A stretch of DNA of 64,000 nt from a bacterium (GCA_021825655.1 JAKAGU010000005.1:12400-76399); one strand, 5' to 3'; shown: positions 2,498 through 62,664, counted from the first letter of the stretch. Numbers and translations: made by a program. Notes: generated by a model not told the origin, from the sequence alone.

Positions 2498-4717
2498 CTA
2501 CGAGGTTTTTTTCTTATAGGGTTTTTTTGGTTTGGGCGGATTTTCTTTCCAATATTTCAAGGCTTCCTGCAGTTCAGCTTCGCTTTCCGGCTTTTTATTC
2601 ATAATAAAGTTGCAGTCCGGAAAACGATTGCAGGCATAGAAAGTTTTGCCCCGCCCGCGGCTCTTTCGTTCCACCACGTCGCCAACCTGGCAATTGGGGC
2701 ACTTAAAGCCGGTCTTGTTCCAGATTTTGGAGATGCCTTTGCATTTGGGGTAATCGACGCAACCCAGAAAGTAGCCGAAACGGCCCCGCTTTACTTCCAT
2801 TTCCTTGCCGCAGATCGGGCATTTTTCACCCCGGGTTTTTTCCGTCAGCTCTTTGATTTTGGCCGCTTCTTCCGGCAAGGGCTGGGTGGTCTTGCATTCT
2901 GGGTCGGAGCAGGCCAAGAATTTGCCCATGCGGCCGAATTTGATTACCATATTTTTCCCGCAGGTCGGGCAGATTACGTCGGTCATTTCCACCTGTTTTT
3001 CCACGGTGGCTTCTTTTTCCGTCAAATGTTGCTTAAAAGGCCCGTAGAATTCTTTACAGATTTCCGTCCAGCCGATTTTGCCTGCCGCAATGTCGTCCAA
3101 TTCTTCCTCAATGTGTGAGGTAAAGTTAATATCGACAATTTCAGGGAAGTTTTCCACCAACATGTCGTTGACCAGGGTGCCAATTTCAGTCGGCTGGTAT
3201 TTTTTTTCAACTTTTTCCACGTACTCGCGGTCTTGGATGGTGGACAGAGTGGGTGCGTAGGTCGAAGGCCGGCCGACCCCAGCCGCTTCCAGGGCTTTAA
3301 TCAGAGTGGCATCCGTGTAGCGCGCCGGGGGTTCGGTGAAATGTTGCTGCGGGGACAGCTGGTGCAGTTTAAGGTTTTCGCCGTTGTCGAGTTCGGGCAG
3401 GGTGTTTTCATCGTCTTCTTCGCTTTCCTCGTCGCGCCCCTCGGTGTAGGCCCGGATAAAGCCGTCGAATTTTACGGTCTGACCCGTGGCGCGGAAAGTG
3501 TAATTTTTTGCGCTAATGTCTGCCGCAGTCTGTTCTAAAACAGCGGGAGCCATTTGGCAGGCAATGGTGCGCTTCCAAATTAGGTTGTACAGCTTGTACT
3601 GGCCTTTATCCAAAAAGGTTTTTAGGCTTTCAGGCGTCCTGATTACGTCGGTCGGTCGGATGGCTTCATGGGCCTCTTGCGCCCCTTTGGACTTGTTAGT
3701 GTAAAACCGGGGTTTTTCCAGGGCGTAGCGTTCGCCGAATTCCTTTTTCACCACAGCTGCAATCGCAGACAGGGCCGAGGCCGCAAGGTTAAGGCTGTCG
3801 GTTCTCATGTAGGTAATCAAGCCCTGGCTGCCTTCTTCGCCCAAATCCACGCCCTCGTAGAGCTGCTGGGCAATAACCATGGTTTGTTTGGCCGACATGC
3901 CCAGCTTGCGCGCAGCTTCCTGCTGCAGAGTGGAGGTGGTAAAAGGCGGGGCAGGGTTCCGCGTGATTTCTTTTTTGCTGACGTTTGCGACCTGGTAGGC
4001 GGCGCCGGCCAGTTCTTTCAAAACGGTTTGCGCGGCCTGTTCGTTTTTTATTTCCAACTTACCGATGCTTTTGCCGTCTTTTTGGTGCAGCCTTGCCGTA
4101 AAGGTTTTTTTCTCGGCCAGTTTGGACAGTTCGGCTTCAATGCTCCAGTATTCTTCCCGTTTGAAGTTTTGGATTTCACGTTCCCTTTCCACTACCAGGC
4201 GGACCGCCACTGACTGCACGCGCCCAGCGGAAAGGCCGTAACGGATTTTGCGCCACAGGAAGGGGGAGAGTTCGTAGCCGACCAGGCGGTCCAGTACGCG
4301 GCGCGCCTGCTGGGCGTCTACCAGGTTCTGGTCAATGTCGCGCGGGTGTTCCAGGGCTTCGGCAATGGCGCTTTTGGTGATTTCGTGGAAAACTATCCGT
4401 TCCTTGGGTTTTTTTTCCAAACCCAAGGCTTGGATTAAGTGCCAGGAAATGGCTTCTCCCTCGCGATCTTCATCAGTGGCCAACACCACTTTGGGCGCTG
4501 TTTTGGCCAGGTTTTTCAGCTTGGCTACGGTTTCTTTGGCTTTGGCGGGTATTATATAGGTAGGGGTGAAGCCGTTCTCCACATCGATGCTCATTTTGCT
4601 TTTGGGCAAATCGCGCACGTGCCCCATGCTCGCTTCCACCTGAAACGCCCCGCCCAAAAAACGCGAAATGGTTTTCGCTTTGGTGGGAGATTCAACAATG
4701 ATTAAAGGCTTGGACAT
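2498..4717 (-). CDS. topA: DNA topoisomerase I
   Basis: Toprim N-terminus (LIIVESPTKAKTI), active-site region and multiple C-terminal C4 zinc ribbons (CPTCGK..., CPICGK..., CPNCQ...). Confidence 0.95.
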   Translation of the reverse strand: MSKPLIIVESPTKAKTISRFLGGAFQVEASMGHVRDLPKSKMSIDVENGFTPTYIIPAKAKETVAKLKNLAKTAPKVVLATDEDREGEAISWHLIQALGLEKKPKERIVFHEITKSAIAEALEHPRDIDQNLVDAQQARRVLDRLVGYELSPFLWRKIRYGLSAGRVQSVAVRLVVEREREIQNFKREEYWSIEAELSKLAEKKTFTARLHQKDGKSIGKLEIKNEQAAQTVLKELAGAAYQVANVSKKEITRNPAPPFTTSTLQQEAARKLGMSAKQTMVIAQQLYEGVDLGEEGSQGLITYMRTDSLNLAASALSAIAAVVKKEFGERYALEKPRFYTNKSKGAQEAHEAIRPTDVIRTPESLKTFLDKGQYKLYNLIWKRTIACQMAPAVLEQTAADISAKNYTFRATGQTVKFDGFIRAYTEGRDEESEEDDENTLPELDNGENLKLHQLSPQQHFTEPPARYTDATLIKALEAAGVGRPSTYAPTLSTIQDREYVEKVEKKYQPTEIGTLVNDMLVENFPEIVDINFTSHIEEELDDIAAGKIGWTEICKEFYGPFKQHLTEKEATVEKQVEMTDVICPTCGKNMVIKFGRMGKFLACSDPECKTTQPLPEEAAKIKELTEKTRGEKCPICGKEMEVKRGRFGYFLGCVDYPKCKGISKIWNKTGFKCPNCQVGDVVERKSRGRGKTFYACNRFPDCNFIMNKKPESEAELQEALKYWKENPPKPKKPYKKKTS

Positions 4718-4805
4718 TTTTTAAGAAAATTATTTAAAAGGTACGGAATGGATTTTACTGATGAACTCAGCTTCTGTCAAATGCGCCCGAAATTTTTATC
4801 GGACA

Positions 4806-5966
4806 TTAATGTAAAGTTTTTTCAGTCAAACCGATTTTTTTCAAGATCTGTGCGCTCTCTGTTTCGTTGGCAAGTCGAGGGGTTGAGTAGTCGTCGATAA
4901 TGATGGGCAGCAGCTCTATGCTTTGCAGGCTGGCCGCACTTTTTGGCCCCTGCAGCCCAGAATTGTCCGCTGGAGCTTTTTCCAGGTTGATTTTTAAGAT
5001 TAGCCCCTCGCGGGTTTCCTGGCTCCACATCTGGTCAAAAATGAAATTACCCAGAGAGTAAAAAATGTATTTGCCCTGGTATTTTTCCACGCTCTGGACC
5101 CAATGGGGGTGCGCGCCAATCACCATGTCCGCGCCCGCGTCAACGGCCGCATGCGCAAAGATGGTTTGCGCCTGGTTGGGCGTGCGGGTGTATTCGGTAC
5201 CCGCGTGCATGCTGGCCACTATAAAGTCGCAGGAAGGCCTGAGGCTTAAAATGTTGGCCTTTAGATGATCCAAGTCTTCCATGCGGGCAACGAAGTTGTT
5301 TTTGGCCTTGCCGCCATCATTAACAGAGGCATATGATGCGCCAATAAAGCAGGTGGTGATGCCGTCTGTTTTTACTTTGGCCGGTCGCCAGGCATCTGCC
5401 TGGTCTTTGCCTGCGCCAATGTGCTGTATGCCTAAATCGTCCAAGAAGTGCACGGTGGATTCCAGTCCAGTGATACCCTGGTCAAGCGCGTGGTTGTTGG
5501 CTAAATTCAGGACTTTGAATTTAGTTTTAGCCAGCCCGCCCAGCGTGCTGGAGCTGGCCGCAAAAACCAAGCTATTGCCCCCAAAGGTTCCCGGGCCGTC
5601 GACTATGGGCGACTCCAGGTTGCCAAAGGAAAAGTCCGCGCTTTGGAGTGTGTTGCTGATTTGGTAAAAAGGCGCCGCGGGGTCGCCTGCGGCCTTGATT
5701 TTTTCGGCCACATGGCGCGAAAGCATAATGTCGCCCGTGGCTATGAAACTGGCCTGGCGGGGTGCTATTGGGTTTTTGCCCAAAGCCGCCGCCTCGTTAT
5801 AGTATTGGCCGAGGCTTTTATTTGCGGCTGTCGGATTTTTAAAGCTGTATGTTTTTTTAGAGAGGCCCGCGTAGGGGTCGGTATTTCTTTGGAGCAGTCC
5901 CCAGGCCGCAGCCAGGGCAAAAAGCAAACCCAATAAAATTTTCCAGTAGTTTTTCTTTAAGTCCAT
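4806..5966 (-). CDS. CapA/PgsA-family metallophosphatase (poly-gamma-glutamate synthesis-like), N-terminal TM anchor
   Basis: MHAGTEYTRTP...GAHPHWVQ...SLGNFIFDQ motifs of the CapA family; hydrophobic N-terminus. Confidence 0.8.
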   Translation of the reverse strand: MDLKKNYWKILLGLLFALAAAWGLLQRNTDPYAGLSKKTYSFKNPTAANKSLGQYYNEAAALGKNPIAPRQASFIATGDIMLSRHVAEKIKAAGDPAAPFYQISNTLQSADFSFGNLESPIVDGPGTFGGNSLVFAASSSTLGGLAKTKFKVLNLANNHALDQGITGLESTVHFLDDLGIQHIGAGKDQADAWRPAKVKTDGITTCFIGASYASVNDGGKAKNNFVARMEDLDHLKANILSLRPSCDFIVASMHAGTEYTRTPNQAQTIFAHAAVDAGADMVIGAHPHWVQSVEKYQGKYIFYSLGNFIFDQMWSQETREGLILKINLEKAPADNSGLQGPKSAASLQSIELLPIIIDDYSTPRLANETESAQILKKIGLTEKTLH

Positions 5967-5981
5967 AAATGTAAAAAGCTC

Positions 5982-7079
5982 TTAATGGCTGAGTGCGTAT
6001 TGCTGGCCTCCTAAGTTTCTTATTTTGCCTTTCATTTCCAGAAATGTCAAAGCCGAGCTGGTTTCGGCGGGCGACAGGCCGGACAATTTAATCAGTTCGT
6101 CTATCGCCAAAGGTTCCCGCCGCAGGATTTTTAAGAGCTGGATTTCGGTTGGCGAATCTCCAAATAGGCTTTGGTTTTCTGTGCCTATGTTTCGGCTGTC
6201 CAGATTCAGGTCTTCCAGGATATCCCGGGCATCGCTGACTAGCCGGCCTCCCATTTTGATGAGGTTGTTGGGGCCGCGGCTTTCAGGTACGTAAATGGGT
6301 CCGGGCACGGCATACACGGTTCGGTTTTGCTCCAGCGCGTGGCGCGCGGTTATCAGGCTGCCGCTATCCAAATCGCATTCGACTACCAGCGTGCCTACGG
6401 CCAAACCGGATATGATGCGGTTGCGGGAAATGAAATGGTGGCGCAGGCAGGGGGTGGCTGGCGGGTATTCGCTTACAAGCGCGCCGCCCGCAGCCAGAAT
6501 TTCTTCGGCTAAGAGAGCGTGGTTTTGCGGGTATAGGCTTTTTTTATCCAGGCCGCCGCCCAGTACCGCAATGGTGCGGCAGCCCAGTTTGACTGCAGTA
6601 TGGTGGGCCAGCGCGTCTACTCCGTAAGCCAGGCCGGAGACAATAACCACCCCGGCCAGGCACAAGGGTTCGACCAGGGTGGGCGTGACACTGCGGCCGT
6701 AGGTGGTAATTTTGCGCGTGCCGACTACGGCCAGGCAAAGTTCGTCATTTTGTTCCAGCCGGCCTTTGACGTATAACAAAACCGGAAAACGCCCGGTCTC
6801 AAGCAGCAGCTGGGGGTAGGCAAGGTCGCGGTAAGATATTAGGAAAATATTTTCCCCTGCCAACCTTTGGGTTTCCAGTTCCAGCGACACGCTGTTTTTT
6901 AGAGCACTGAATTTTTTTGCCAGTTCCGGCTCAATTCCCGCTGCCACCAGCTCGTTGGTGCTTGCAGTATAAGCCCGGGCAAAAGTTTTAAAATGTTCTC
7001 CAATTTTATAGAGCCTGGCTGGCCCGAACTCCGGCAGCAGATTGAAAGCATGGATGTATAAATTTTCAGGGAAGCCCAT
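5982..7079 (-). CDS. dprA: DNA processing protein DprA (Smf)
   Basis: Rossmann-like DprA core (LAVVGTRKITTYGR...SGLAYGVDALAH...AVLGGGLD) and a C-terminal winged-helix region. Confidence 0.85.
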   Translation of the reverse strand: MGFPENLYIHAFNLLPEFGPARLYKIGEHFKTFARAYTASTNELVAAGIEPELAKKFSALKNSVSLELETQRLAGENIFLISYRDLAYPQLLLETGRFPVLLYVKGRLEQNDELCLAVVGTRKITTYGRSVTPTLVEPLCLAGVVIVSGLAYGVDALAHHTAVKLGCRTIAVLGGGLDKKSLYPQNHALLAEEILAAGGALVSEYPPATPCLRHHFISRNRIISGLAVGTLVVECDLDSGSLITARHALEQNRTVYAVPGPIYVPESRGPNNLIKMGGRLVSDARDILEDLNLDSRNIGTENQSLFGDSPTEIQLLKILRREPLAIDELIKLSGLSPAETSSALTFLEMKGKIRNLGGQQYALSH

Positions 7080-7107
7080 TTTTGCTTAGTTTATGCGCGT
7101 TTTAGCC

Positions 7108-7136
7108 TTGACAAAACCCTCAAAATGGTATATAAT
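7108..7136 (+). promoter_or_regulatory. sigma70-type promoter TTGACA-17-TATAAT
   Basis: Exact consensus -35 and -10 hexamers with a 17-nt spacer, reading into a non-coding interval. Confidence 0.55.
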
Positions 7137-7142
7137 ATTATA

Positions 7143-7343
7143 TCAGTATACGGTCAGAAGGAGTTTTGCTTAGTTTGTTTGTTTCTTGGATCCTACATGC
7201 AAGTAGCTCGAAACAGGTATGATCCCTCCTACTACTTGTTTTGGCATCAAGTAAAGGTTTGTAGGCGTTTGCTTGCGGCCTTTCACTTGCAGGTAGGGTC
7301 CTCTAAACAAACAATAAATCCCGCAGAGCGCGGGATTTTTTTT
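7143..7343 (+). ncRNA. Candidate ~200-nt structured small RNA (6S-like), promoter to terminator with no credible ORF
   Basis: Lies between the consensus promoter and the intrinsic terminator AAATCCCGCAGAGCGCGGGATTTTTTTT. The 5' segment (TTTGTTTGTTTCTTGGATCCTACATGCAAGT) is largely complementary to the 3' segment (ACTTGCAGGTAGGGTCCTCTAAACAAACAA), giving a long imperfect closing helix. Confidence 0.35.
7318..7343. terminator. Bidirectional intrinsic terminator, serving the sRNA candidate on + and pth on -
   Basis: Palindromic GC-rich stem CCCGCAGAGCGCGGG flanked by an A-run and a T-run. Confidence 0.6.
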
Positions 7344-7887
7344 ATACTCCGAGTTTTAAAAATTGGTCAACTTCATTTTTTACTTTGGGCAGCACCTCAG
7401 CGTCCAGCTGTGCCAGTTCCTGGGGAGTAAAGTTCTGCAGGACAAAGGCGTCGGTGGGCGGGTTCTTTTTGTCTATCCGGGTTTCAACCCCGATGCGCAC
7501 CCGGCTGAAGTTTTGGCTGCCCAGGGCGTCAATAATGCTCTGCACGCCATTGTGTCCGGCTGCCGAAGACCCCGTGCCGGTACGCAGCGCGCCAAAGGGC
7601 AAATCCACGTCATCGTGTAGAACCATCAGGTCATGTTCGGTATCCAGTTTGTAGTAGTGGCAGATTTCCGCCACCGCTTCGCCCGAAAGATTCATGTAAG
7701 TCAGGGGCTTGATAAAAAAGATTTTCAGGCTGCCGAAATGCAGTTCGCAGATTTGGGCTTGGAACCTGGACTGGCAGGCCAGGGGGTGGATGCCTTTTAA
7801 GAAAAAATCCACAGCCAAAAATCCGGCGTTGTGCCGCGTTTTTTGGTATTTGATTTCGGGATTGCCCAAGCCGACAACGAATTTCAT
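7342..7887 (-). CDS. pth: peptidyl-tRNA hydrolase
   Basis: MKFVVGLGNPEIKYQKTRHNAGF, the canonical Pth N-terminus. Confidence 0.9.
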   Translation of the reverse strand: MKFVVGLGNPEIKYQKTRHNAGFLAVDFFLKGIHPLACQSRFQAQICELHFGSLKIFFIKPLTYMNLSGEAVAEICHYYKLDTEHDLMVLHDDVDLPFGALRTGTGSSAAGHNGVQSIIDALGSQNFSRVRIGVETRIDKKNPPTDAFVLQNFTPQELAQLDAEVLPKVKNEVDQFLKLGV

Positions 7888-11019: not shown

Positions 11020-11096
11020 GGACAATTAGCTCAGCTGGTTAGAGCGCGCCGTTCACATCGGCGAGGTCACTGGTTCGAATCCAGTATTGTCCACCA
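11020..11096 (+). tRNA. tRNA-Val (anticodon CAC), encoded CCA
   Basis: Cloverleaf: acceptor GGACAAT/ATTGTCC, anticodon stem CGCCG/CGGCG with loop TTCACAT, T-arm GGTTCGAATCC, 3' ACCA. Confidence 0.9.
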
Positions 11097-15806: not shown

Positions 15807-15835
15807 TTGACAATTGGCCATTTTTTTGCTATAAT
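15807..15835 (+). promoter_or_regulatory. consensus sigma70 promoter TTGACA-17-TATAAT for the GC-rich gene downstream
   Basis: Perfect hexamers with a 17-nt spacer; the ~260-nt leader contains hairpins (AGGTGTCCT...AGGACACCT; CAGAGGTCCTCTG plus a T-run). Confidence 0.6.
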
Positions 15836-15911: not shown

Positions 15912-16040
15912 GTGCTACTTAATTTAGAGGTGTCCTTTGCGACAAGCAGGCGATTTTTCGTCTTTTTGTGGCAGAGGACACCTACGTGTGTTCCGAAGCC
16001 GCGCAGAGGTCCTCTGGCGATTTTTTCTGGGAGCGTTTAA
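15912..16040 (+). CDS. possible 42-aa leader peptide/uORF (GTG start) in the 5' leader
   Basis: Strong AGGAGG Shine-Dalgarno 5 nt upstream of GTG; the ORF spans both leader hairpins. It is below the ORF-track length cutoff. Confidence 0.25.
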   Translation: MLLNLEVSFATSRRFFVFLWQRTPTCVPKPRRGPLAIFSGSV

Positions 16041-16095
16041 CAGCGTTTCCAAAACCGGAATGTAGTTTAGACACAGACTCCATGGAGATGATTCG

Positions 16096-17400
16096 ATGAA
16101 ACGATTGACCCTGATGTTCGCCTTCGTGCTGGCGCTGGCCATCACGTTTTCTCACTCGGCTCTCGCGCAGTTTGGCGGAGCCGAAAACCCGGGGATCCAG
16201 GCCCAGGCAGATGCGGCACAGGCGAAAGCCGATGCCGCGGCTGCCAAGAAGCAGGCCGACGATCTCAAGAAAGAAGTGGACACGCTCAAGAAGGGCGGCG
16301 GCCTCACATCCGACAACACGTGGATGTGGTGGTTGCTGCTGCTGATTCCGATCGGTCTCGGGGCATGGTGGTTCTTTTTCCGTAATCGTGGAGAGGGGCA
16401 ACCGCCTATCGTTCCCGAACCGGCTGCGCCTGCGGAACCCGAGAATCCGAACCCGCCCGCTCCCGACAACGGTGGTGGCGAACCCCCGGCTCCTCCGGCG
16501 CCCGCACCGCAACCCGAACCGGCTGCGCCTGCGGAACCCGAGAATCCGAACCCGCCCGCTCCCGCTCCTAACCGCAACCCGAACCCGGCACCCATTCTGG
16601 ACGACGCAGCCAAAAGCAGGCTGAGGCAGACACTTCCGGTGATTGCTTTCGTGTTGCTTTTCAGTGGTCTCGCTTCTTCCGTCCGCGCCGCGAACTGCTT
16701 CAACACCGCGGCCCCGGTCGGCGGCGCCTCTCCGGTGCCGATCGCTATTGTGAAGGAATCCAACACCCTTCGCTGCAACAACTCCAGCCCTCTCACCGTG
16801 TTTGACGAGAGCGGCCGGGCAGTTGCCACGGGGACGCGGACTATCACCTTCACTCCCACAACCTCCGGCCGTTACCATATCCGCGCAGGCAGGGTCACCA
16901 TCAGTCCGCTGGTGGTCACGGACCGCTACGGCGCGTTCCTGATCAACGGCTCTGTGGATCTGTCCCGCGGTTCGGTCTCTTCGGCTGACGCCACGGCGCG
17001 CACTCAGGCCAAGCAGGCTGATGTCAAGGCCAACGCGGCAATGAGCCGGGTGACCACTACCGAGAAGTCGGTGGGGACGCTCAGTGACCAGATCAAGGCC
17101 ATCGCCGCCGCGCACGACCGACTGGAGGAGCGCGTCTCCGCTCTGGAAAGCCGGCCGGCCCCCCGGGTCGACCTGGCTCCTTTGGAGCAGCGCGTGGCCA
17201 CGCTCGAAGCCGAGCTGGCGCGAGTGAAGGCCACGGCCAACACTGCGCTCAGTACCGCGCAACAGGCAGATGCCAAGGCTACCGATGCCAACACCCGGTA
17301 TGAAGAGATGGGCCTTGCCCGGTTTAAGACCGGCCTGTTCCGTTCCAAAACCGTGGTTGAGGCCGTCGAAGACGCCAAAGCCAAAGCCAGCAAACAGTAG
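16096..17400 (+). CDS. secreted/membrane protein with a signal peptide, TM helix, proline-rich tandem repeats and C-terminal coiled coil; GC-rich
   Basis: Signal peptide MKRLTLMFAFVLALAITFSHSALA, TM WMWWLLLLIPIGLGAWWFFF, duplicated EPAAPAEPENPNPPAP module, Ala/Glu/Arg-rich heptad C-terminus. The region 15982-17496 is visibly GC-rich (about 60-65% by eye) against ~45-50% flanks. Confidence 0.7.
   Translation: MKRLTLMFAFVLALAITFSHSALAQFGGAENPGIQAQADAAQAKADAAAAKKQADDLKKEVDTLKKGGGLTSDNTWMWWLLLLIPIGLGAWWFFFRNRGEGQPPIVPEPAAPAEPENPNPPAPDNGGGEPPAPPAPAPQPEPAAPAEPENPNPPAPAPNRNPNPAPILDDAAKSRLRQTLPVIAFVLLFSGLASSVRAANCFNTAAPVGGASPVPIAIVKESNTLRCNNSSPLTVFDESGRAVATGTRTITFTPTTSGRYHIRAGRVTISPLVVTDRYGAFLINGSVDLSRGSVSSADATARTQAKQADVKANAAMSRVTTTEKSVGTLSDQIKAIAAAHDRLEERVSALESRPAPRVDLAPLEQRVATLEAELARVKATANTALSTAQQADAKATDANTRYEEMGLARFKTGLFRSKTVVEAVEDAKAKASKQ
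16417..16564 (+). repeat. Two identical 49-nt direct repeats (16417-16465 and 16516-16564), period 99 nt, in frame
   Basis: GAACCGGCTGCGCCTGCGGAACCCGAGAATCCGAACCCGCCCGCTCCCG occurs twice and encodes the duplicated Pro-rich module. Confidence 0.8.
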
Positions 17401-17522
17401 CACTACAATCGCCGTTCCCCGCACGCCTGTAAAAAGGCCGGCGGGGGACACACACTCGAAAAAAGGGCCGGCCTCACAGCTTGCCCTTTTTTCCATGCCT
17501 GTTTTTTATTTTGGTCAACCGA

Positions 17523-18008: not shown

Positions 18009-21000
18009 TTGCCCACTATGCCAGAAGGAGAAAATAGGGTTATTTTATCTTCCGATCTTGAGCCTAAGCCCAGCCGCGAACAACGCCAGGGGCAAGAGGG
18101 GAAAGAACAGCAAAAAGAAAAACTGAAAACGCGGGAATACTTGGACCGGGCGGTTTTGGAATTGAAAAATTTGCTAAAAGATTTGCCCCGAGACTCCAAA
18201 GAAGGCAAGCGCGCAGAGCATACCCTTAGGGCGGTGGAGTGGGCTTTGGGTAATTTGGGGAAAAATGGCGCGGGTGAAGGCAAGTACCGCCTGGAAATGA
18301 AAGACCACGAAGGCAAACCGGCCAAGTGGCCGGAGGGCAGTCCAGCAGTGCAGGACGAAGGCGTGCCCGTGGATGAGTTGATTGATTTGCTGAAAGGCCG
18401 CGCCCAAGAGCTGAATACTGAAGTCAGAAAAAAGGACAGCGTCAAAAAGAAAAAGCAAGCAATGGATGCACTGTGGGAGCGGTATAATTTGGCGCACGAG
18501 GTGGATTTAAAAGACCAGACGCACGATAAGGCCTGGGTGTATAGCCAGTGGGAGCAAGCCAAAAAGGCCTATGAGGCCGCCCAGGAAGCCTATGAATTGG
18601 GGTATGATGCAAAAGGCAAAGAGCTGGACGAACTGGCCGGGGAGCTTTACAAGCGGAGCGAAACTCACTTTCAGGCGCATTTCAGCCATGAGCTGCCTTT
18701 AAGCAAGGAAGAGTCCGACAAGCAGAATGTGCGTACTACCCATGAGGCGTATTTAATTCACCATGACTACCGCAAAACAAAAAACAAAGATCAGGATTAT
18801 CAGGCGGCCATGGATGCCATGGGCAAAAGAAGGGAACTGATTTTGGAAGAAAAGAAAGAGACTGAGATAATCCAGGGGCCGACGGGTCCGACTGAGGGTC
18901 CTGTGCAAGGCCCCACAGAAGGCCCCACAGAATTTATTAAAGGCCCAGAGCGCGTGGCTATTGTTAATGCCGAAGCGCAGGTAGAGCTTTTGGCCCGTAA
19001 GCGCGCCAACGAGAGGCTGACGGAAATGTTCAATGGCGCCGGACGGCTTAAAAAAATGTGGTATCGCGCCTGGGAAGAAGGCTACCGCCAGCAGCTGATT
19101 GACGAAGAGCGCAAGAAAATTTTAGGCGAAGGCAACAAAGCCAACTGGCTAAAGCGCAAACTGTTCGGGGCAAAGGAGTTTGATGCCACGGGCAAGAAAA
19201 ATTTGTTTGCCGGTACGGCTTCGGAAGGCGAAAATAAAACCGAGCTAACGGCTTTGGCTGAGCGGTTTTCCAAAGGCTACATTAAAGAATCGGAAGGCGA
19301 ACAGAAAGAGCAGCTGCAAGACCCCGAATTCAACAGCCAGCTCAATGACTTGGTTTTTAAATATGTGGAAGGCGGACTGTCGGACGAAGAATTTGAGAAG
19401 CAGAAAGATGAGATGATTGCGGCTATCGGTAAAAAATATCCGGAGAGTTTTGCGGCCGGCAAATTGACAGCGGACAATTTTTTGGAGGCGGCGCGGGAGT
19501 TTAAGAAAATCCACGAGCATTCCAAAAAGCTGGCCCGGGTGGATATCAATCTGGGCATAGATTTGGGCAATGCCAAGCAGGCCATCAAAACCCAGGCTAA
19601 CCTAAAATGGACGGACAGGATGATTGCCAAGCTCCAGAAATACCCCGGCATTGGCCATGTGTTTACTCCGGGCAGCGTAGGGTTTGGGGTTTCCGTGGGT
19701 GGCTATTTATTTAAAAAACCTTTGTATTTTGTGGGCGGCGCGGCGGGCGCGGGCGGCATCTTAGGCGGCATGCGGCGCAATTTTGAGCAGAAGCGCGATT
19801 TGGAAATGCACCGCATTGAAGCGGCCATGGGCAATAAGATTGCGGACTATGGACCGGCAGCCAAGCGCCGCCAGGAAATGGAAAAATATGTGCATGAAAT
19901 GAAAAATGCCTCCGAAGTGAGCGCGGAATTGGCCAGTTTGCGCGCGGCTTTCGAAGCCGGGCCCAGCCCTGAAAATGCGGCGGCTTTAACCAAGCTTTTG
20001 GCGGAAACGGAAGCGCGTATGTCGCTTTCCGAAGAACGGCAGCGGGATTTGATTTCTTTTGACGGCGAAACTACGCTGGAGCGCGGCCGGCTGTTTTTGC
20101 TAAAAGAACTCGCCGAGGCCAAAGTAAAGCTGGGTAATAAGGGCTTTGATTCCAATATTGCCGGCAGCCAGGACTATAAAGATTTTATGGCTTCTTTGGG
20201 CGGCAATATGGACAAATTGGAAAAAAGCGAAAAGTACAAGCGCTGGAAAGAAAACACGAAAGCCGCAGCCGTGGGCGCAGTTACCGGATTGGTGGTGGGC
20301 GGCTTGGCCCAGCAGGGGGCAGCGGAAATCGGCGACCGTGTTTCCTGGCTTTCCTGGCTGCGGCCGGGAGGCCGGGCTACGGGCATGGAGCGGCTTTATC
20401 ACTTTGTTAAAGGCGATTTGCCGACCGCGCCTTCGGGTGCGGGTTTGGCTGAAGTGGTGGGGATTGCCGGCGCGCACGGCACTGTTAAGATTGACGGCTC
20501 CACTGAGCTGGTCCAAAATCGGTCAACCGGCTTATGGAATCTGGTGGATAAGGCCGACCATACCAAAATTTTGGCGGAAATGGATATAGATCCCGCATCA
20601 GGACAGCTTACGCCCCGGCCGGGGAGCTTTGACCATAACCTTATTGATTTTTCTTCCCGCACCGCGGGCGGCGGGCACCGGAGCGTGGCCGAATGGATGC
20701 AGGACAGCCGCGCCGGCTTGCCGAAGGGGGCAAATATGGAGCATTTGCATACGGAGATGTTTTACGACAACGACACCCCGGCGCCAAAGTTTGATTTCAA
20801 CGAACTTCGGTTTTACATGCACGCAGATCCTCACGGCAACATTACCATGGATGCGGGCAAGATCCGGGAATACCTGGAAGAGAATTTTTCCCAAGTGTCG
20901 GGTTCCAGGCATGGCGAGCGGGCGTTGGATATTGTCAGTGCCTTTAAAAGCGGGGAGATAAAAATTGCCATCGCACCTGACCCGGACCATCCGGGAGAAA

Positions 21001-22694
21001 TGTTCACTTTCCAGCCAAATGCCGCAACGGGTGAATATGTGCTGCCTGCAGGCAGTGAAGTTGCCAAAATGTTCGGTGTGGACGGCTCGGGCAATGTTAC
21101 CTATAAAGGCAACGGCTTTATGGGCATGATAGAAAACCCCAAAGGCAGTGCCGTTGCCCGCTGGATAAACAGTATCCGTGGCAACGGCGAAGCCATTGAA
21201 ACAGGTCCGGGCCAGCGCGTGATTAATGAGATTACCAGGAAGTATCCGCGCGAATGGTGGATGCCCTGGATTGGCATTTTCAGGCGCAAGGCTCTGGAGC
21301 AAAAGCAGAAAAAAGAATTGGGCGGCGAACAGAAGGGGAAGGGCTCGCCTGGCCAGGAAGGCGAAGGCCACGGCAATGAAAAGCCGATTATTGTGGATAC
21401 GGAAGGCAAAAAAATTGAACCAAAGTTTATCTACTTTGAGGAAGAGGAAGAAACCGAGGAAGCGATAAAGAAAAAGCTGCTGGGTAAAAAGTTTAAACAG
21501 AAGGTGGCTGTGGATACGCGCGGCCAGAAAATTACCAATGACCGCAAAGATTACGGCAAAGACTACCCGCAGAAGTTTCCGTTTAAGGACGAAAAGCAAA
21601 TGGCCGATTATCTGGTCAACGTGCTCAAGGGGACGGGCAAATTTTTTGCCCGGGCAGAAGATTTGGATGCGCTGAAAAAATTGGACCAGGCTGGCAAGGT
21701 GAAGTTTTTGGAGGAGCGGATTAAAAAAGCCCGCACGACCGGCCTGGAGCTGCGCGACGGAGTCATTAAGCCGGAGGCGGCCCAGGAGCTGACCAGTTTC
21801 GTGCTGAACCGGGTCAATGAAGAGTTTGCCAAGTACGGGCAGGCGGGCCGGAGCGAAATGCCGGATGCCAGCAAAGTGCATATTGTCAGCATTTACGAGT
21901 TCCAGGCCCAGGCCGAATTGGGCGGCCGGGACGCTTTGGGCCTGTGTTTTACCCAAAACGGCGAAATTTTCATCAATTATGAGCTAATAAAAGAGGCGGC
22001 GGCCAACAGCGACGAATTTGTCCGTGAATTAAAGCGCACAATTGCCCACGAAGTGGTCCATGGGGGCGCGGCGGCCAACTATTGGGCGTTTGAACAGGAG
22101 GCCGACGGCAGCGACGGGGTGTTTGTGCAGAGGCGCACGGGTTTAAAAATGGTCCGCAGGGAAAACGCTTCCACCGACCTGGTCCGTGAGCGCGGCCGTG
22201 CGCTGAACGAAGCGGTTACTGAAACCCTGGCTAAGGATATTACCGACAGGATATACAAAGACGAAGGCGCCAAACAGGTTACTTACCGCAGCGAGCCGTA
22301 CCAAGATGAACGCAATGTGCTGAAGCTCATGCAGGAAAAATTCCATATTCCGTTTACGGCCTTTGCGGAAGCCGTAGTCAACCGCAAAGCCTTAAAAAAT
22401 TTGGCAGAACTTCTGGACGGCAAGAGCCAGGAAGGTAACAAGGTGGAGCGGCCTCAGTTTATGTCTTTGCTTATGTCGATTATGGATTACGAGCACAACG
22501 AGCATCACTTCGATTACGCCAAGACCAAGCAGCTTATTCAGGGGGCTAAGGGCCTGCAGATAACCCCGGAGATGAAATTGGCTTTCCCGGCATCGCTTTT
22601 GGACCGCGCCGGCAACATCAAAGCCAGTCTGGTTGAGCAGTACGACTTGGTAGACATGGATGCAGTAAGAAAACTCCGTCCCAAAGCCGCCTAA
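18009..22694 (+). CDS. giant protein (1561 aa): charged N-terminus, two glycine-zipper hydrophobic segments, C-terminal HExxH zincin-like motif
   Basis: K/E-rich low-complexity N-terminus with GPTEGP repeats. Gly-zipper stretches GSVGFGVSVGGYLFKKPLYFVGGAAGAGGILGG (~19670-19770) and AAAVGAVTGLVVGGLAQQGAAEIG (~20266-20335). HEVVH at 22047-22061 in the context TIAHEVVHGGAAANYWAFEQE. No signal peptide. Confidence 0.8.
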   Translation: MPTMPEGENRVILSSDLEPKPSREQRQGQEGKEQQKEKLKTREYLDRAVLELKNLLKDLPRDSKEGKRAEHTLRAVEWALGNLGKNGAGEGKYRLEMKDHEGKPAKWPEGSPAVQDEGVPVDELIDLLKGRAQELNTEVRKKDSVKKKKQAMDALWERYNLAHEVDLKDQTHDKAWVYSQWEQAKKAYEAAQEAYELGYDAKGKELDELAGELYKRSETHFQAHFSHELPLSKEESDKQNVRTTHEAYLIHHDYRKTKNKDQDYQAAMDAMGKRRELILEEKKETEIIQGPTGPTEGPVQGPTEGPTEFIKGPERVAIVNAEAQVELLARKRANERLTEMFNGAGRLKKMWYRAWEEGYRQQLIDEERKKILGEGNKANWLKRKLFGAKEFDATGKKNLFAGTASEGENKTELTALAERFSKGYIKESEGEQKEQLQDPEFNSQLNDLVFKYVEGGLSDEEFEKQKDEMIAAIGKKYPESFAAGKLTADNFLEAAREFKKIHEHSKKLARVDINLGIDLGNAKQAIKTQANLKWTDRMIAKLQKYPGIGHVFTPGSVGFGVSVGGYLFKKPLYFVGGAAGAGGILGGMRRNFEQKRDLEMHRIEAAMGNKIADYGPAAKRRQEMEKYVHEMKNASEVSAELASLRAAFEAGPSPENAAALTKLLAETEARMSLSEERQRDLISFDGETTLERGRLFLLKELAEAKVKLGNKGFDSNIAGSQDYKDFMASLGGNMDKLEKSEKYKRWKENTKAAAVGAVTGLVVGGLAQQGAAEIGDRVSWLSWLRPGGRATGMERLYHFVKGDLPTAPSGAGLAEVVGIAGAHGTVKIDGSTELVQNRSTGLWNLVDKADHTKILAEMDIDPASGQLTPRPGSFDHNLIDFSSRTAGGGHRSVAEWMQDSRAGLPKGANMEHLHTEMFYDNDTPAPKFDFNELRFYMHADPHGNITMDAGKIREYLEENFSQVSGSRHGERALDIVSAFKSGEIKIAIAPDPDHPGEMFTFQPNAATGEYVLPAGSEVAKMFGVDGSGNVTYKGNGFMGMIENPKGSAVARWINSIRGNGEAIETGPGQRVINEITRKYPREWWMPWIGIFRRKALEQKQKKELGGEQKGKGSPGQEGEGHGNEKPIIVDTEGKKIEPKFIYFEEEEETEEAIKKKLLGKKFKQKVAVDTRGQKITNDRKDYGKDYPQKFPFKDEKQMADYLVNVLKGTGKFFARAEDLDALKKLDQAGKVKFLEERIKKARTTGLELRDGVIKPEAAQELTSFVLNRVNEEFAKYGQAGRSEMPDASKVHIVSIYEFQAQAELGGRDALGLCFTQNGEIFINYELIKEAAANSDEFVRELKRTIAHEVVHGGAAANYWAFEQEADGSDGVFVQRRTGLKMVRRENASTDLVRERGRALNEAVTETLAKDITDRIYKDEGAKQVTYRSEPYQDERNVLKLMQEKFHIPFTAFAEAVVNRKALKNLAELLDGKSQEGNKVERPQFMSLLMSIMDYEHNEHHFDYAKTKQLIQGAKGLQITPEMKLAFPASLLDRAGNIKASLVEQYDLVDMDAVRKLRPKAA

Positions 22695-42520: not shown

Positions 42521-44197
<1,677 letters not shown>

Positions 44198-44292: not shown

Positions 44293-44321
44293 TTGACAAA
44301 CTGTCAATTTTAGTGTACAAT
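44293..44321 (+). promoter_or_regulatory. promoter TTGACA-17-TACAAT with ~520 nt before the first convincing ORF
   Basis: Read directly; it precedes a structured non-coding stretch and then five small ORFs. Confidence 0.5.
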
Positions 44322-44849
44322 TGCCAGTTACGATCTAAAAGTCGTACTTAACAATTTCATATAGATATCTGTCTGTTTTTAACAGGAGAGCACACGGATA
44401 TCGCCCTCACGCCAATCTTCACCAGGCATGATTTAGAGACGAGCGAATTTTTACATAGAGTCATCTGCTATACAGACTTGTTGAGGATTGGTGTGGGGGA
44501 CTTACATGCTCCTGATTTCGCTAATACCGGATTGGGGGCGCGATAAAGCCGTGGCACAAGAACGATTTTACTTTGGTTCTCCTGTCCACGGTTTTTTGTT
44601 TTTTCAAACCGGGGGAATATCGTGTTTTATTCCAAGTTTGGTTATAATTCCTTTTGGCAGCGTGGGCCTTTGGAGGGCAAATAATATTTGGCATCTGCTA
44701 CGATGCTTAGGCCTGTTTCTCAAAGACCCACATTGGCGGAAGGAATTTTTTTGTCCGGAACGCTGTTGCGCTTTTTAAGAGCCCAGCAGCCTTCCGGGCA
44801 GACTGCCGCACTTGTGCGGCAAATCCATTCTGTCTTTGAAGGAGGGGGT

Positions 44850-45170
44850 ATGAGAAAGTCCAAAACGATGTTGGTGTGCCAGTTGGCTTTCGCGCTCCTG
44901 ATTTTAGGGACTGCCGGCAAGATGCTCTGGCAGTTCAAACAGTACACAGTCGTGATGATGGTCGGCGGGCCGGAGAAGTTTAACCGGCTTCAGGCCGATG
45001 CCAATCGCCATGCACAGCAGTTCATCATTGAGCACGGCGGCAGCGCCTTGCTCGAATGGAATGGGCTCGGTAACAACGAACCCACCGTGTACGTGCTTTT
45101 GCACTTGCACGAAGGTTACACCGTCCATCCGGACGGCCGGGTGGAAAAGAACGGAGAGGAGAAACCCTAG
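44850..45170 (+). CDS. small membrane/secreted protein (106 aa)
   Basis: GGAGGGGG SD; N-terminal hydrophobic segment MLVCQLAFALLILGTAG; GC-rich. Confidence 0.45.
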   Translation: MRKSKTMLVCQLAFALLILGTAGKMLWQFKQYTVVMMVGGPEKFNRLQADANRHAQQFIIEHGGSALLEWNGLGNNEPTVYVLLHLHEGYTVHPDGRVEKNGEEKP

Positions 45171-45344
45171 ATGGAGGAAATCGTGAGTGACCTGTTCAAG
45201 GAGTTGGCAGCGTGCTGCCAGTTCAAGTGGCGGGGAATGAACCCCGAGTACAAGTTGGTCTGGAAGATCGTCGGCGCGGCATTCGCGCTGCTGGTCTTTG
45301 CGGCCGCTGTTTCGGGCCTGGCCCTGCTCGTGGGGCCGAGGTAG
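45171..45344 (+). CDS. small membrane protein (57 aa)
   Basis: ATG immediately after the previous stop (TAGATG); C-terminal TM IVGAAFALLVFAAAVSGLALLV. Confidence 0.35.
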   Translation: MEEIVSDLFKELAACCQFKWRGMNPEYKLVWKIVGAAFALLVFAAAVSGLALLVGPR

Positions 45345-45453
45345 CCAACAACATGGACAAACAGAGGGGGCGGGGTAGCTAACCAGCTTATTTCCGCCCA
45401 TCTCCAAACTTGCCAAGTATTCTTGGGAATAGTTGCCAGGTTTGGGGAGAAAT

Positions 45454-45717
45454 ATGTTTAACAAAATGATGATGGCGACTCTCGTCGTCTTGGTGCTTGG
45501 CGGTTTTGCCGTCGAAATCTGCTGGGCCAAGAATTTGGTCAAACAGACACTGAGAGACGAAGAGCTGATGCAGGCGTTCCGAGCGTTCGGGCGCTTTCTG
45601 ATGACCCCATTCCGGTCCCTGGGTACGGCCCTGGACCAACAGTTCAACACGCTAGTCGACACGGCGCAAACCGTGCTCTGGCCGAAAAAACGAGAGGAGG
45701 GGAAAGAAAAGTGGTAA
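45454..45717 (+). CDS. small membrane/secreted protein (87 aa)
   Basis: GGGGAGA SD; TM MMMATLVVLVLGGFAV. Confidence 0.4.
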   Translation: MFNKMMMATLVVLVLGGFAVEICWAKNLVKQTLRDEELMQAFRAFGRFLMTPFRSLGTALDQQFNTLVDTAQTVLWPKKREEGKEKW

Positions 45718-45857
45718 AGGAAAAGCTCCTTTGGCCATTTATGATGGCGGCAGGGTTTGTTCTCCTTGCCATCATCCTTGCGTCGCTTTGGCGCAAGAAT
45801 CTGGAAGACCGGCTCAATGACCCAACCCGCCCGCCTGGGCAGTGGTTGTACCGCTGA
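45711..45857 (+). CDS. small membrane protein (48 aa, GTG start overlapping the previous stop)
   Basis: GAGGAGG SD 10 nt upstream; TM FMMAAGFVLLAIILASLW. Confidence 0.3.
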   Translation: MVKEKLLWPFMMAAGFVLLAIILASLWRKNLEDRLNDPTRPPGQWLYR

Positions 45858-45867
45858 GGGAGCAGGC

Positions 45868-46014
45868 ATGGATAAGCTGCTCATTGCAAACGCCGTATTT
45901 TTCTCGGCGCTCGGCCTGTTTTTCCTTCATGACTTGCTGTTCGGCAAACCCATCGACCGGTCTGACCGGTCCGACAAGTCCAACCGACAGCATCGGCGCG
46001 GGCGCGGTGGATAG
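45868..46014 (+). CDS. small membrane protein (48 aa)
   Basis: GAGGGAG SD; TM AVFFSALGLFFL. Confidence 0.35.
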   Translation: MDKLLIANAVFFSALGLFFLHDLLFGKPIDRSDRSDKSNRQHRRGRGG

Positions 46015-49487: not shown

Positions 49488-49562
49488 GCGGGTATCGTAT
49501 AATGGTTATTATCTCAGTTTTCCAAACTGATGATGCGGGTTCGATTCCCGCTACCCGCTCCA
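49488..49562 (+). tRNA. tRNA-Gly (anticodon UCC)
   Basis: Acceptor GCGGGTA/TACCCGC, anticodon stem TCAGT/ACTGA with loop TTTCCAA, T-arm GGTTCGATTCC, CCA encoded. Confidence 0.9.
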
Positions 49563-50152: not shown

Positions 50153-50290
50153 ATGTGCATATCAAGAGAGCAGTTAGGGAACTAGCCCGATGACCTGCCG
50201 GCAACCTGTCCTTTTATGGATAAGGTGCCACCTCTAGCCCTTCACAGGGAAAGATAATTTTTATACCCGTGAAGAACGGGATTTTTTATT
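50153..50290 (+). promoter_or_regulatory. SAM-I (S-box) riboswitch with an intrinsic terminator, leader of metK
   Basis: ATCAAGAGAGCAG..AGGGAACTAGCCCGATGACCTGCCGGCAACC...GGTGCCA matches conserved S-box positions; the expression-platform terminator is CCCGTGAAGAACGGG plus TTTTTTATT. Confidence 0.8.
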
Positions 50291-50305: not shown

Positions 50306-51499
50306 ATGAAAAAACTGTTTTCTTCCGAGTCCGTGACCGAAGGCCATCCGGATAAAATGGCTGACCAGATTAGCGATGCCGTGTTGGACGCTATTTTAAA
50401 AGCCGATCCCCGCGGCCGCGTGGCTGTGGAAACATTGCTGACCAACGGCGTGTGCGTTGTGGCGGGCGAAGTCACCACCAAGACCTACGTGGATATTCCC
50501 AAGGTGGCGCGCGAGGTCATTAAGGATATTGGCTACACCAATGCGGAGTACGGCTTCCAGTGGGAAACCTCCGGTTTGCTTGTGGCCATTAAGGAACAGT
50601 CTTCCGATATTGCCATGGGCGTGGATGCGTTCGTTAAAGGCAAGAGCGGGGGCGTGATAAAAGAGGATTTGGAAAAAATCGGCGCGGGCGACCAGGGGCT
50701 GATGTTCGGCCTGGCTACGGATGAAACCAAAGAGTACATGCCCTTGCCGATTGTGCTGGCGCATAAATTAACCCAGCGCCTGGCTTATGTGAGAAAACAC
50801 GGTATTGTAAAAGGGCTCCGTCCGGACGGCAAAAGCCAGGTGACCGTGGAGTACAACGGCGACAAGGCCAAGCGCGTGCACACGGTGCTAATTGCGGCCC
50901 AGCATGATCCGGATGTGGACAGCGAGAAACTGAAAAGCGAGATTATCAAACAGGTGATAAAAAAAGTCATTCCCACTAAGCTTTTGGACAAGCATACCCG
51001 GATCTTAGTTAACTCCACGGGCCGCTTTGTGATTGGCGGGCCGCAGGGCGATACGGGGCTGACCGGCCGCAAGATTATTGTGGACACTTATGGCGGCATG
51101 GGCCGGCACGGCGGCGGCTGTTTTTCCGGCAAGGACCCCTCCAAGGTGGACAGGTCGGGCTCTTACATGGCGCGCTATGTGGCCAAAAATTTAGTGGCTG
51201 CGGGTTTGGCCAAAAAACTGGAAGTCCAGGTGGCTTATGCCATTGGGGTGCCTGAGCCTTTGAGTGTGCGCGTGGACACTTTTGGCACGGGCAAAATTCC
51301 CGATGATACCATTGCGGGCATTGTTGGGAAGGTTTTTGATTTGCGGCCGGGCATGATTATTAAGCAGTTAAATTTGCGGCGGCCGATTTACCGCCAGGTA
51401 GCGGCTTATGGCCACTTTGGCCGCAATGACTTAAAGTTGCCCTGGGAAAAACTGGATAAAGTTAAAGAAATCAAAAAACTGGCCAAATTAAGGAAATAA
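50306..51499 (+). CDS. metK: S-adenosylmethionine synthetase
   Basis: [25 protein letters not shown] and GGGAFSGKDP-type motifs. Confidence 0.95.
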
Positions 51500-58135: not shown

Positions 58136-58209
58136 TGGTCGGGCTGCTGGGAATCGAACCCAGTCTACCTGCTCCCAAAGCAGGCGTACTACCGGTATAC
58201 TACAGCCCG
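58136..58209 (-). tRNA. tRNA-Pro (anticodon UGG)
   Basis: Reverse complement folds as acceptor CGGGCTG/CAGCCCG, anticodon stem CCTGC/GCAGG with loop TTTGGGA, T-arm GGTTCGATTCC, ACCA. Confidence 0.85.
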
Positions 58210-62100: not shown

Positions 62101-62664
62101 TACACTTCCGGTGGTGTTACCACGACCTTCAGCCCGAGTGTTGCTTCCCCGACCATGACCTTGGTTGCGTCTAAGCCCACTGTGGCCGCGACTCAGCCGA
62201 CCAACAAGTTGGCTGTTGCCAACATCGAAGCTATTGACGTAGCTGTTACGGCTGACGCCAATGGCGACATTACGCTCAACAGCATTCCGTTGACCATTGG
62301 TTTGAGCGGCGCGCAGGCGAGCTCCACCTCGACCAGCAACATTCTTGTTTACAGGTCTACTGACCTGACCACCAACATTGCCACTTCCAACACTGCGTTG
62401 GGCGCGGTTACTGGCGGTACCAGCACTGTTACCTTGGACAACACCAAGACCAGAATTACTGCTGGCCAGACTTTGAATTTGAAGGTCTTCGTCACGTTGA
62501 CCCAGGTGACCTCTGCCACTTCCGGCAGCGACTCCATGGCGACCAACATGGCGACTGGTTCCGGCTTTAGCTGGACCGACACTGCTGGCGGCGGCTCTGC
62601 CACCACCGGCACTTCGCTCATCTCCGGCTACCCGAGCACCTTCACCTCTATTGTTACCAACTAA
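59152..62664 (+). CDS. large secreted Thr/Ser/Gly/Ala/Val-rich surface protein (1170 aa), candidate S-layer protein
   Basis: Signal peptide MQTSVAKKIFAVGVAASTVLMSLAPFAAQA; three N-terminal ~40-aa repeats (..AGAFLSYGFNSWSSVVDANADD.., ..AAVFTGLGFSFARSQMGDVSW.., ..IATFNSWGYSFSDVVVANAAD..); a long beta-rich, low-charge, nearly Cys-free body. Confidence 0.75.
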   Translation: MQTSVAKKIFAVGVAASTVLMSLAPFAAQAASHAEGTNVKASDGTVSMIIGGQRRPYTSAGAFLSYGFNSWSSVVDANADDLALPVGSFIPPQDGKIICSDRGADKGTCYLITGGQKAGFTSAAVFTGLGFSFARSQMGDVSWMTSTTNIDNTTAAHRAGVLVNNNGTVYLVGATGLLGIPDIATFNSWGYSFSDVVVANAADKAMSQTGVMAARTAGQLSPTALTGSGSGSGSGSVVSGNVSAMLASDTPAANTVITTPVASPQPAGQSVADLAHFAFSGSGTVTQVVLNRIGISADTVLSNVYLYVNNNKVTDAASFSNGVLTFNNPAGIFTVSGNTVVSVRADIAGGVGSGQTIGVQLSSYTVANGTPATVSLSGNLMTVASVSDMATFTLTAVPTPSATGNVTAGTMNQSLWSGNFNVGTRKVNLKYVAFKQVGSVPVGSLQNMKLYVAGSPVGSPVATLDSTNNVVFDMSGSPVTLNTGSQTIELRGDVIKGSSFNYTFRIQTSSDIVAVDTNYGVNLPVALSGGAVLPATTAAQTISQGSTSTQQDASFTQTQVVKNSSNVTLGQWTMKAYGEDVKVQTMNVVVNYFDSTGAATTTTATEGFNNLGIYVNGGMVGSSQTTVAQTGTTHTKTYGTTNLFTIPAGTTVTIAVKGDMALDSGTKVASVRADIVTPANSMQGVTSYQTFPTNPATFQGVSQSVVTSSITLAKNGSLANGTLSTNVAKQKIGSYTVQASSADGVRVSSLTVAISGTLGTTNLANLYIQTPSGSATPVNPQPSNNFSVDFTVAANQAATVDVYADVTNATGTVTTTLLGTGTGTVSGQTVYLNSTGLSGGAAVTGQTMTSGTGTITNPPTLNTGSSPVAQFVVGSTSSTNQPLATYTFVSSSGASTITELHFTVSGTNTPTDTPITKVYVGGQSGNVLNNGTTETVTVTGLNISVPNSTAGLNVPVTVDFAPVSSTGGVASGKTAYLTLTYVKYTSGGVTTTFSPSVASPTMTLVASKPTVAATQPTNKLAVANIEAIDVAVTADANGDITLNSIPLTIGLSGAQASSTSTSNILVYRSTDLTTNIATSNTALGAVTGGTSTVTLDNTKTRITAGQTLNLKVFVTLTQVTSATSGSDSMATNMATGSGFSWTDTAGGGSATTGTSLISGYPSTFTSIVTN

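Follow-up and report, generated by a model that had tools for sequence, protein, structure and literature searches.

In the 64-kb stretch of bacterial DNA that was analyzed here (the window), the gap between dprA and pth contains a transcription unit that is read from the + strand, away from dprA and toward pth. Both of these genes lie on the opposite strand, and the features of the unit and its two neighbors are collected in Table 1. Beyond pth lie der and a LytR-family gene, and beyond dprA a PGA_cap gene and topA, all assigned by Pfam. The initial annotation had proposed an independent small-RNA gene of ~200 nt in this gap, and the analysis bears this out, with the unit possessing its own promoter, its own terminator, and a helix that closes its two ends, all of which are kept in homologues. 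That positions 7143–7345 (+) are a real, conserved, and structured small-RNA (sRNA) gene, a stand-alone and non-coding unit of ~200 nt, is close to certain. The RNA is present in one copy in the window.

Table 1. Positions of the sRNA gene, its structural elements, and its two neighbors in the window
Feature	Position	Strand	Remarks
dprA	5982–7079	−	Pfam PF02481 and PF17782; divergent; start codon 28 nt from the sRNA −35 box
−35 box TTGACA	7108–7113	+	sRNA promoter; in A1, aligned and invariant
−10 box TATAAT	7131–7136	+	17-nt spacer from the −35 box
5' leader	7143–7174	+	Lineage-specific; small hairpin 7152–7170 and AAGGAG at 7159–7164 (fold)
P1 closing helix, 5' strand	7175–7204	+	26 bp in the family model; junction-proximal CCUAnnUGCAAG conserved
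P2 arm	7206–7245	+	2-bp helix, purine-rich internal loop, 7-bp stem, 13-nt loop (7220–7232)
CCCUCCU heptamer in the P2 loop	7224–7230	+	Invariant; contains the anti-Shine-Dalgarno core CCUCC
Junction strand J2/3, AUCAAGU	7246–7252	+	AAG nearly invariant (alignments)
P3 hairpin	7253–7283	+	13 bp; base AAGGUU/CCUU conserved; loop variable, U-rich
P1 closing helix, 3' strand	7285–7314	+	ACUUGCAGGUAGGG conserved near the junction
Intrinsic terminator and U-tract	7316–7346	+	Hairpin 7316–7338; bidirectional; common to the convergent pth
pth (peptidyl-tRNA hydrolase)	7342–7887	−	Pfam PF01195, E = 1.4e-52; convergent

The promoter (7108–7136, +) matches the TTGACA-17-TATAAT consensus at 12 of 12 positions, as the initial annotation had read it. 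Perfect sites of this kind occur twice in the 64-kb window, and sites with at most one mismatch six times, compared with 0.18 expected from shuffles. From the promoter spacing, transcription is predicted to start near 7143; both ends of the transcript are predictions from sequence signals, and the gene is probably highly expressed. The terminator hairpin scores on both strands, in agreement with the earlier description of a ~200-nt unit that ends at a strong bidirectional terminator, and it is followed by a U-run on the + strand and abuts the pth stop codon at 7342. When the window is aligned with its homologues the promoter boxes, the core, and the terminator are all kept, the promoter and terminator being preserved although the neighboring Pth proteins are only 35–64% identical. 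TTGACA-17-TAnnnT is the best upstream match in ~36 of the 44 homologues that have enough upstream sequence, most of the homologues with this promoter carrying an exact TTGACA, and most 3' ends consist of a (GC-rich) hairpin with a U-run or of a U-run that follows P1 directly. Between the −10 box and P1 there are 8 to ~49 nt across homologues, and the 5' leader of the window is missing or unlike in them; because this distance is so variable, the leader is taken to be lineage-specific and to lie outside the conserved core. The promoter region is near-palindromic (7105–7116 and 7131–7142): CTTGACAAA reads TTGTCA on the other strand, a 5/6 match to the −35 box, and ATTATA at 7137–7142 is TATAAT on the − strand. 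This arrangement may represent back-to-back promoters shared with dprA; in the alignment, the − strand −10 box (7137–7142) is not kept in homologues.

A Pth-based scan of species-representative genomes placed the window in a Patescibacteria (Candidate Phyla Radiation, CPR) bin. Its nearest Pth relative is a single contig, 99% identical, and the next relatives, 48–63% identical, are labeled Doudnabacteria, "Saccharibacteria" (generic bin labels), and Patescibacteria. Searching with the 204-nt transcript by nhmmer recovered the RNA in loci L001–L007 (E = 1e-12 to 1e-57), where it follows pth and lies on the other strand, with a weak match in two Kerfeldbacteria loci; the nucleotide sequence of the RNA is therefore recognizable where Pth is only 38–63% identical. 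A first covariance model, built from nine sequences, identified 14 members among 80 pth loci plus the window. Metagenome contigs were scanned with an exact pattern that demanded CCCTCCT, AAGGT, and YTTNCRCTTG and then filtered with the covariance model, which confirmed 34 of the 120 pattern matches; 2 of these duplicate others, leaving 32 that were added. The final family alignment contains 45 sequences, 44 of them distinct, from Patescibacteria genome bins and metagenomes. Since the pattern preset CCCTCCT, AAGGT, and YTTNCRCTTG, invariance at these positions counts as independent evidence in the 13 genome-derived members only. A second-generation model returned no member from the pth loci of WWE3, Gracilibacteria, Paceibacteria, Uhrbacteria, Peribacteria, Vogelbacteria, and non-CPR bacteria, and no member was found in viral contigs, where three pattern matches are attributable to chance. 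As found here, the family is confined to one part of the Patescibacteria (bins labeled Doudnabacteria, Kerfeldbacteria, and unclassified).

The position of the RNA is kept together with its sequence. Kerfeldbacteria-type and deeper members have the order der, pth, RNA (opposite strand), mfd, dprA, topA, and the clade of the window has the order der, pth, RNA, dprA, (PGA_cap), topA, with mfd absent from the locus. In one locus (L016) pilB- and pilM-like genes lie between pth and the RNA, which still adjoins mfd. At the homologous loci the RNA is always on the opposite strand and divergent from the mfd/dprA operon, with its −35 box 9–80 nt from the first start codon of that operon, and it is usually convergent with pth, the terminator being common to both. 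In four deeper-branching members (L118, L142, L157, and L159) the interval that separates the sRNA promoter from the start of mfd contains a kept hairpin, (U)CCC...GGGA followed by AAUUUGGCU. This hairpin lies on the mfd strand, ~5–40 nt past the −35 box of the sRNA, and might be what is left of a terminator or part of the leader of mfd. A related arrangement is seen in a Parcubacteria bin (L058), in which a 251-nt gap (4594–4845, −) separates der-pth from dprA...topA. The gap contains a TTGACA-17-TAGTAT promoter on the opposite strand and a strongly structured region of ~200 nt (z = −6.7), with a long hairpin that carries CACCCUCCU in its loop and is followed by a terminator. This region does not align to the family model and differs from it in architecture, so its homology is unproven; it suggests that a long helix with a CCCUCCU loop is a constant feature of the pth/dprA locus.

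The transcript of the window (7140–7343, 204 nt) folds with −76.1 kcal/mol, compared with −49.1 ± 4.0 kcal/mol for dinucleotide shuffles (z = −6.7, with 0 of 200 shuffles as good). Its ends pair with each other as 10 + 9 + 7 bp (7175–7204 with 7285–7314), which is the complementarity of the 5' and 3' ends that had been noticed initially. RNAalifold and model-based alignments converge on one family fold, a three-way junction that runs from the 26-bp P1 through a single nucleotide to P2, J2/3, and P3, and through another single nucleotide to the 3' strand of P1. Within the family the P2 loop ranges from 12 to 14 nt and J2/3 from 7 to 8 nt. The less-paired center proposed in the initial annotation is not observed, the center being made up of two hairpins that are each supported by covariation. 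Among 33 distinct sequences, standard pairs occupy 94.2% of the cells, a value that none of 500 column shuffles reached (72.3% after shuffling), and 39 of the 48 family pairs are changed on both sides; the comparison across related genomes that had been suggested as a check on the fold thus returned a single, covariation-supported structure. When the 3' partners are slid by 1–3 columns, pairing falls to 36–47%. All three helices contribute: double changes are present in 21 of 26 pairs of P1 (93.7% of cells pair), in 7 of 7 pairs of the P2 stem (96.5%), and in 9 of 13 pairs of P3 (94.4%). P1 is probably stacked on P3 to form a rod, with P2 as a side arm, because only 1 nt lies between the two helices. 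A scan of the unpaired columns for tertiary or pseudoknot covariation, such as loop-loop pairing, gave clade-correlated pairs only, none of them convincing. An alternative pairing of the P2 loop or J2/3 with the 3' strand of P1, among which the CCUAUU and CAAGU motifs are repeated, was dropped; it is untestable by covariation because all columns involved are invariant.

The alignment also identifies the strand of the RNA and excludes a number of other types of element. G·U and U·G cells number 341 compared with 36 A·C and C·A cells, and this large excess of G·U places the RNA on the + strand of the window. The covariance model likewise scores 80–148 bits on the sense strand compared with 20–38 bits on the antisense strand. 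An element on the opposite strand, such as a dprA/mfd 5' UTR or a Shine-Dalgarno (SD) sequence AGGAGGG with a small ORF, is ruled out by both of these measures and has no properly spaced start codon. The sole long ORF of the + strand (7125–7430, 101 aa) begins inside the promoter, between its two boxes, and extends across the terminator into pth, and the initial judgment that it is implausible is upheld by the homologues, in which no reading frame is conserved. A stop-free + frame spans the core in only 10 of the 45 homologues, and the spacing of two invariant anchors is spread over all residues modulo 3 (19/19/7), which together rule out a small protein gene. Neither in the window nor in any homologous locus with enough flanking sequence is there a + strand gene downstream of the RNA, the convergent pth lying there instead. 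Because no gene follows on its own strand, the RNA is not a leader or a riboswitch, and a cis-regulatory leader of any type (riboswitch, attenuator, or r-protein leader), which the initial annotation had named as the alternative to its reading, is ruled out.

Within this fold, the CCCUCCU heptamer of the P2 arm is invariant in the 13 genome-derived homologues, which were obtained by pth synteny or nhmmer and not by means of the motif, whereas every pair of the P2 stem is changed. The heptamer is predicted to be unpaired with a mean probability of 0.89, compared with ~0.31 for the average nucleotide of the RNA, and this probability exceeds 0.8 in 38 of the 45 members. An A two positions upstream of it is also conserved. 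Near the junction, P1 CCUAnnUGCAAG paired with CUUGCAGGUAGGG is conserved, as are AAG in J2/3 and AAGGU...CUU at the base of P3. Sequence varies freely in the outer 14 bp of P1, in the stem of P2, and toward the top of P3. The internal loop of P2 in the deeper-branching members has GAA(A) opposite (A)AGUA, which we take to resemble the S-turn/loop-E protein-docking motif; it is degenerate in the Doudnabacteria-type clade, including the window. The conserved scaffold, comprising junction-proximal P1, the base of P3, J2/3, and the P2 internal loop, suggests an extra protein partner or a tertiary fold.

Comparison of the window locus, and of the RNA position in 17 homologous loci, with Rfam 15 at the gathering score returned no family. 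The Rfam scan proposed in the initial annotation was run for 6S and the other models alike, and none of them matched. Even among the matches with E ≤ 10 for the 451-nt region 7000–7450, 6S (RF00013) is absent, as are the cuckoo/CcsR, 6C, RsaE, and Yfr1 families at the locus; those that appear are sub-threshold matches to leader families that stem from the terminator hairpin and lie far below the gathering scores. The only gathering-level Rfam matches in the window are a SAM-I riboswitch (50156–50260, +), located upstream of an ORF at 50306–51499, and three tRNA genes (11020–11093, +; 49488–49559, +; and 58139–58209, −). No earlier description of the RNA was found in Rfam 15 or in the searchable literature on 6S RNA, sRNAs, and structured non-coding RNAs of CPR/Patescibacteria, and it constitutes a new, previously uncatalogued RNA family.

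Several known RNAs share individual properties with this family. In the cuckoo/RSs0680 family, variable hairpins carry the anti-SD-like CCUCCUCCC in their loops, and occlusion of the ribosome-binding site has been discussed as the mechanism (PMC4615179). These RNAs (CcsR, alpha-r14-type; Alphaproteobacteria) resemble the window RNA in being stand-alone sRNAs with an anti-SD-like pyrimidine motif in their loops and compensatory changes in their stems. They differ in consisting of 2–4 tandem simple hairpins with the motif in each, whereas the window RNA has the motif once, on the side arm of its three-way junction, and is closed by a 26-bp helix. Furthermore, CCUCCUCCC is their only strongly conserved sequence, in contrast to the extensive additional sequence conservation of the window RNA, and they belong to another phylum and have no sequence or covariance-model similarity to it. 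The 6C RNA of Actinobacteria, RsaE/RoxS of Bacillales, and Yfr1 of Cyanobacteria are class- or phylum-wide sRNAs with C- or CU-rich unpaired loops that are thought to pair with G-rich ribosome-binding regions. Unlike the window RNA, they are ~60–110 nt long and have neither a long closing helix nor a three-way junction.

An invariant, exposed, anti-SD-like heptamer carried on variable stems is the pattern of a base-pairing sRNA, and we therefore favor, tentatively and at somewhat less than even probability, a trans-acting RNA that pairs its P2 loop with GGAGG-type ribosome-binding sites. The CCCUCCU of the loop would pair in trans with GGAGG(G)-type purine tracts, chiefly the SD regions of those mRNAs, a minority in this lineage, that bear one, and such pairing would block 30S binding or alter mRNA stability. 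Trans action, pairing to ribosome-binding sites, and the identity of the targets are what we infer from this pattern. The family could then be regarded as a new architectural variant of the anti-SD-loop sRNAs, if the mechanism is right. The scaffold is conserved in sequence far beyond the need of a hairpin that presents a seed, which agrees no less well with binding of a protein to the RNA or with a tertiary fold, and the invariant first C (CCCUCCU, not ACCUCCU) is unexplained by pairing to ordinary SD sequences.

These properties bear on the main competing explanation, itself rather unlikely, namely that the RNA is a protein-binding housekeeping RNA or RNP scaffold that mimics the single-stranded 3' tail of 16S rRNA beside helix 45. 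Its helix and (A)UCA..CCUCCU loop would titrate or deliver a factor that recognizes the tail; such a factor might be Era (through its KH domain), a nuclease of 3'-end maturation, or a different protein of the KH or pyrimidine-binding type. The conservation of helices and junctions as well as of the loop (junction-proximal P1, the AAGGU base of P3, and the AAG of J2/3), the GAA(A)/AGUA internal loop of P2 in the deeper-branching members, and the maintenance of the RNA across lineages with different candidate-phylum labels all argue for a bound protein, and a perfect or near-perfect consensus promoter suggests the constitutive high expression that is typical of housekeeping RNAs. The P2 loop presumably resembles the 16S tail GAUCACCUCCU, and we likewise take the tail with its preceding helix (helix 45 plus GAUCACCUCCUUA) to be a structural counterpart, since in both a helix is followed by a single-stranded pyrimidine tract with CCUCCU. 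However, the 16S tail has a free 3' end whereas the tract of the window RNA lies in a closed loop and has an extra C, its flanks differ between clades of the family, and the likeness to 16S beyond CCUCCU is short and clade-dependent. The neighbors der, pth, mfd, dprA, and topA point to no specific partner, and invariant C-rich loops on variable stems are the signature of base-pairing sRNAs. The more far-reaching proposal that the RNA is a lineage-wide housekeeping imitator of the 16S tail (a helix and then ..UCA..CCUCCU) in the ultra-small, SD-poor, and largely leaderless Patescibacteria is improbable. If true, it would make the RNA a competitor of the ribosomal anti-SD that gates the small SD-dependent share of the translatome or titrates a 30S-biogenesis factor such as Era, and a trans-acting "anti-SD decoy" of this kind would be a class not described so far.

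The strict maintenance of position and orientation, even with the insertion of pilB- and pilM-like genes in L016, the short distance of the −35 box to the divergent start codon (9–80 nt), and the terminator common to the RNA and pth would be expected if the unit acted mainly in cis, as a strongly transcribed opposite-strand unit whose RNA product is secondary. Its role could be to separate der-pth from mfd/dprA-topA as an insulator, to provide the bidirectional terminator, or to disturb the closely adjoining dprA/mfd promoter. Neither insulation nor promoter interference requires a 146-nt fold kept by compensatory changes and G·U pairs, or an invariant loop, and the divergent partner has switched from mfd to dprA with the RNA unchanged, which makes a primarily cis-acting unit a doubtful prospect of low probability. 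That the RNA is of the 6S type, mimicking an open promoter to bind sigma-70 RNA polymerase, is very improbable, and the 6S-like identity and shape proposed in the initial annotation are not supported. The window RNA is comparable to 6S RNA (RF00013; ~150–200 nt) in size, in having its own strong promoter and a terminator, and in the long irregular helix formed by its 5' and 3' ends; its gene always faces away from mfd, the product of which binds RNA polymerase, or from the remnant of the mfd operon, and no 6S RNA was detected elsewhere in the 64-kb window, an absence that says little because the window is a small part of the genome. In contrast to 6S RNA, its center is branched into two paired arms and the consensus fold, which is supported by covariation, contains no central bubble in which neither strand is paired. 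Since a single nucleotide separates P3 from the 3' strand of P1, there is no unpaired second strand for an open-promoter mimic, and the distal arm, P3, has just 13 bp, which we presume to be too short to mimic the upstream duplex. The covariance model of 6S finds no match at the locus at E ≤ 10, and none was obtained in the 17 homologous loci. Equally hard to sustain is the idea that the three-way junction forms a ligand-sensing or catalytic RNA, either an orphan aptamer of the riboswitch type or a ribozyme. A junction with conserved nucleotides and two arms is a common aptamer architecture, but there is no downstream gene to regulate, the 26-bp P1 is unlike a switching helix, and neither an Rfam riboswitch or ribozyme match nor tertiary covariation such as loop-loop pairing was found.

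For the favored trans-pairing RNA, the use of SD sequences in the window limits the number of candidate targets. A few window genes have a strong SD complementary to the loop, for instance GUAGGAGG at 15902, which is perfectly complementary over 8 nt to the sRNA loop CCUCCUAC, and AAGGAGGGGG at 44838. AGGAGGG is not enriched in the window (7 found compared with 7.4 expected), and the best predicted loop-target duplexes in the window lie mostly inside genes. An SD-like motif (GGAG, GAGG, AGGA, or AAGG) is present upstream of only ~10 of 40 crude gene calls in the window, and a general SD-masking role would therefore touch few genes; in an SD-poor genome the targets would then be limited to the few SD-led genes, with the sites at 15902 and 44838 as examples. 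Several genes, among them pth, have TATAAT only 8–17 nt before the ATG (examples at 7887, 10816, 38329, and 42065), which suggests that their mRNAs have no leader or a very short one. A perfect TTGACA-17-TATAAT promoter occurs at just one other place in the window (15807–15835, +), where it is followed by ~250 nt before an ORF for a secreted-looking protein of 434 aa (16096–17400, +), and within this leader a 42-aa ORF is preceded by a strong SD, GUAGGAGGAAUAAGUG. The strongest SD in the window is GAAGGAGGGGGU, which precedes the ATG at 44850 of the + strand ORF 44850–45170.

Almost nothing is known of RNA-based regulation in the CPR, whose members have genomes of ~1 Mb with few regulators and mostly belong to lineages with no cultured models. 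The covariation, the consensus promoter, the conserved sequence, and the loop with an anti-SD core together provide a concrete and testable handle on translation control in these bacteria. The family alignment and covariance model would permit annotation of the RNA across Patescibacteria genomes, where an intergenic gap of 200 nt need no longer be left blank or mislabeled as 6S.

Some further elements of the window were recorded in the course of the analysis. Two large ORFs, 18009–22694 (+; 1561 aa) and 59152–62664 (+; 1170 aa), have no Pfam domain at E ≤ 1e-5. Downstream of groEL (42524–44197) lies a candidate for a second unannotated structured RNA (44293–44600, +), for which there is no Rfam match and no convincing ORF. 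It has a TTGACA-17-TACAAT promoter at 44293–44321, its ~270 nt fold with −100.5 kcal/mol (z = −7.75, reached by 0 of 200 shuffles), and it ends in a hairpin and U-run near 44575–44600. Two pairs of ORFs overlap on opposite strands, 44850–45170 (+) with 44904–45884 (−) and 16096–17400 (+) with 15982–17496 (−). The − strand ORFs, which are the longest, are Arg-rich or of low complexity and probably spurious, and the shorter + strand ORFs are likely to be the real genes.
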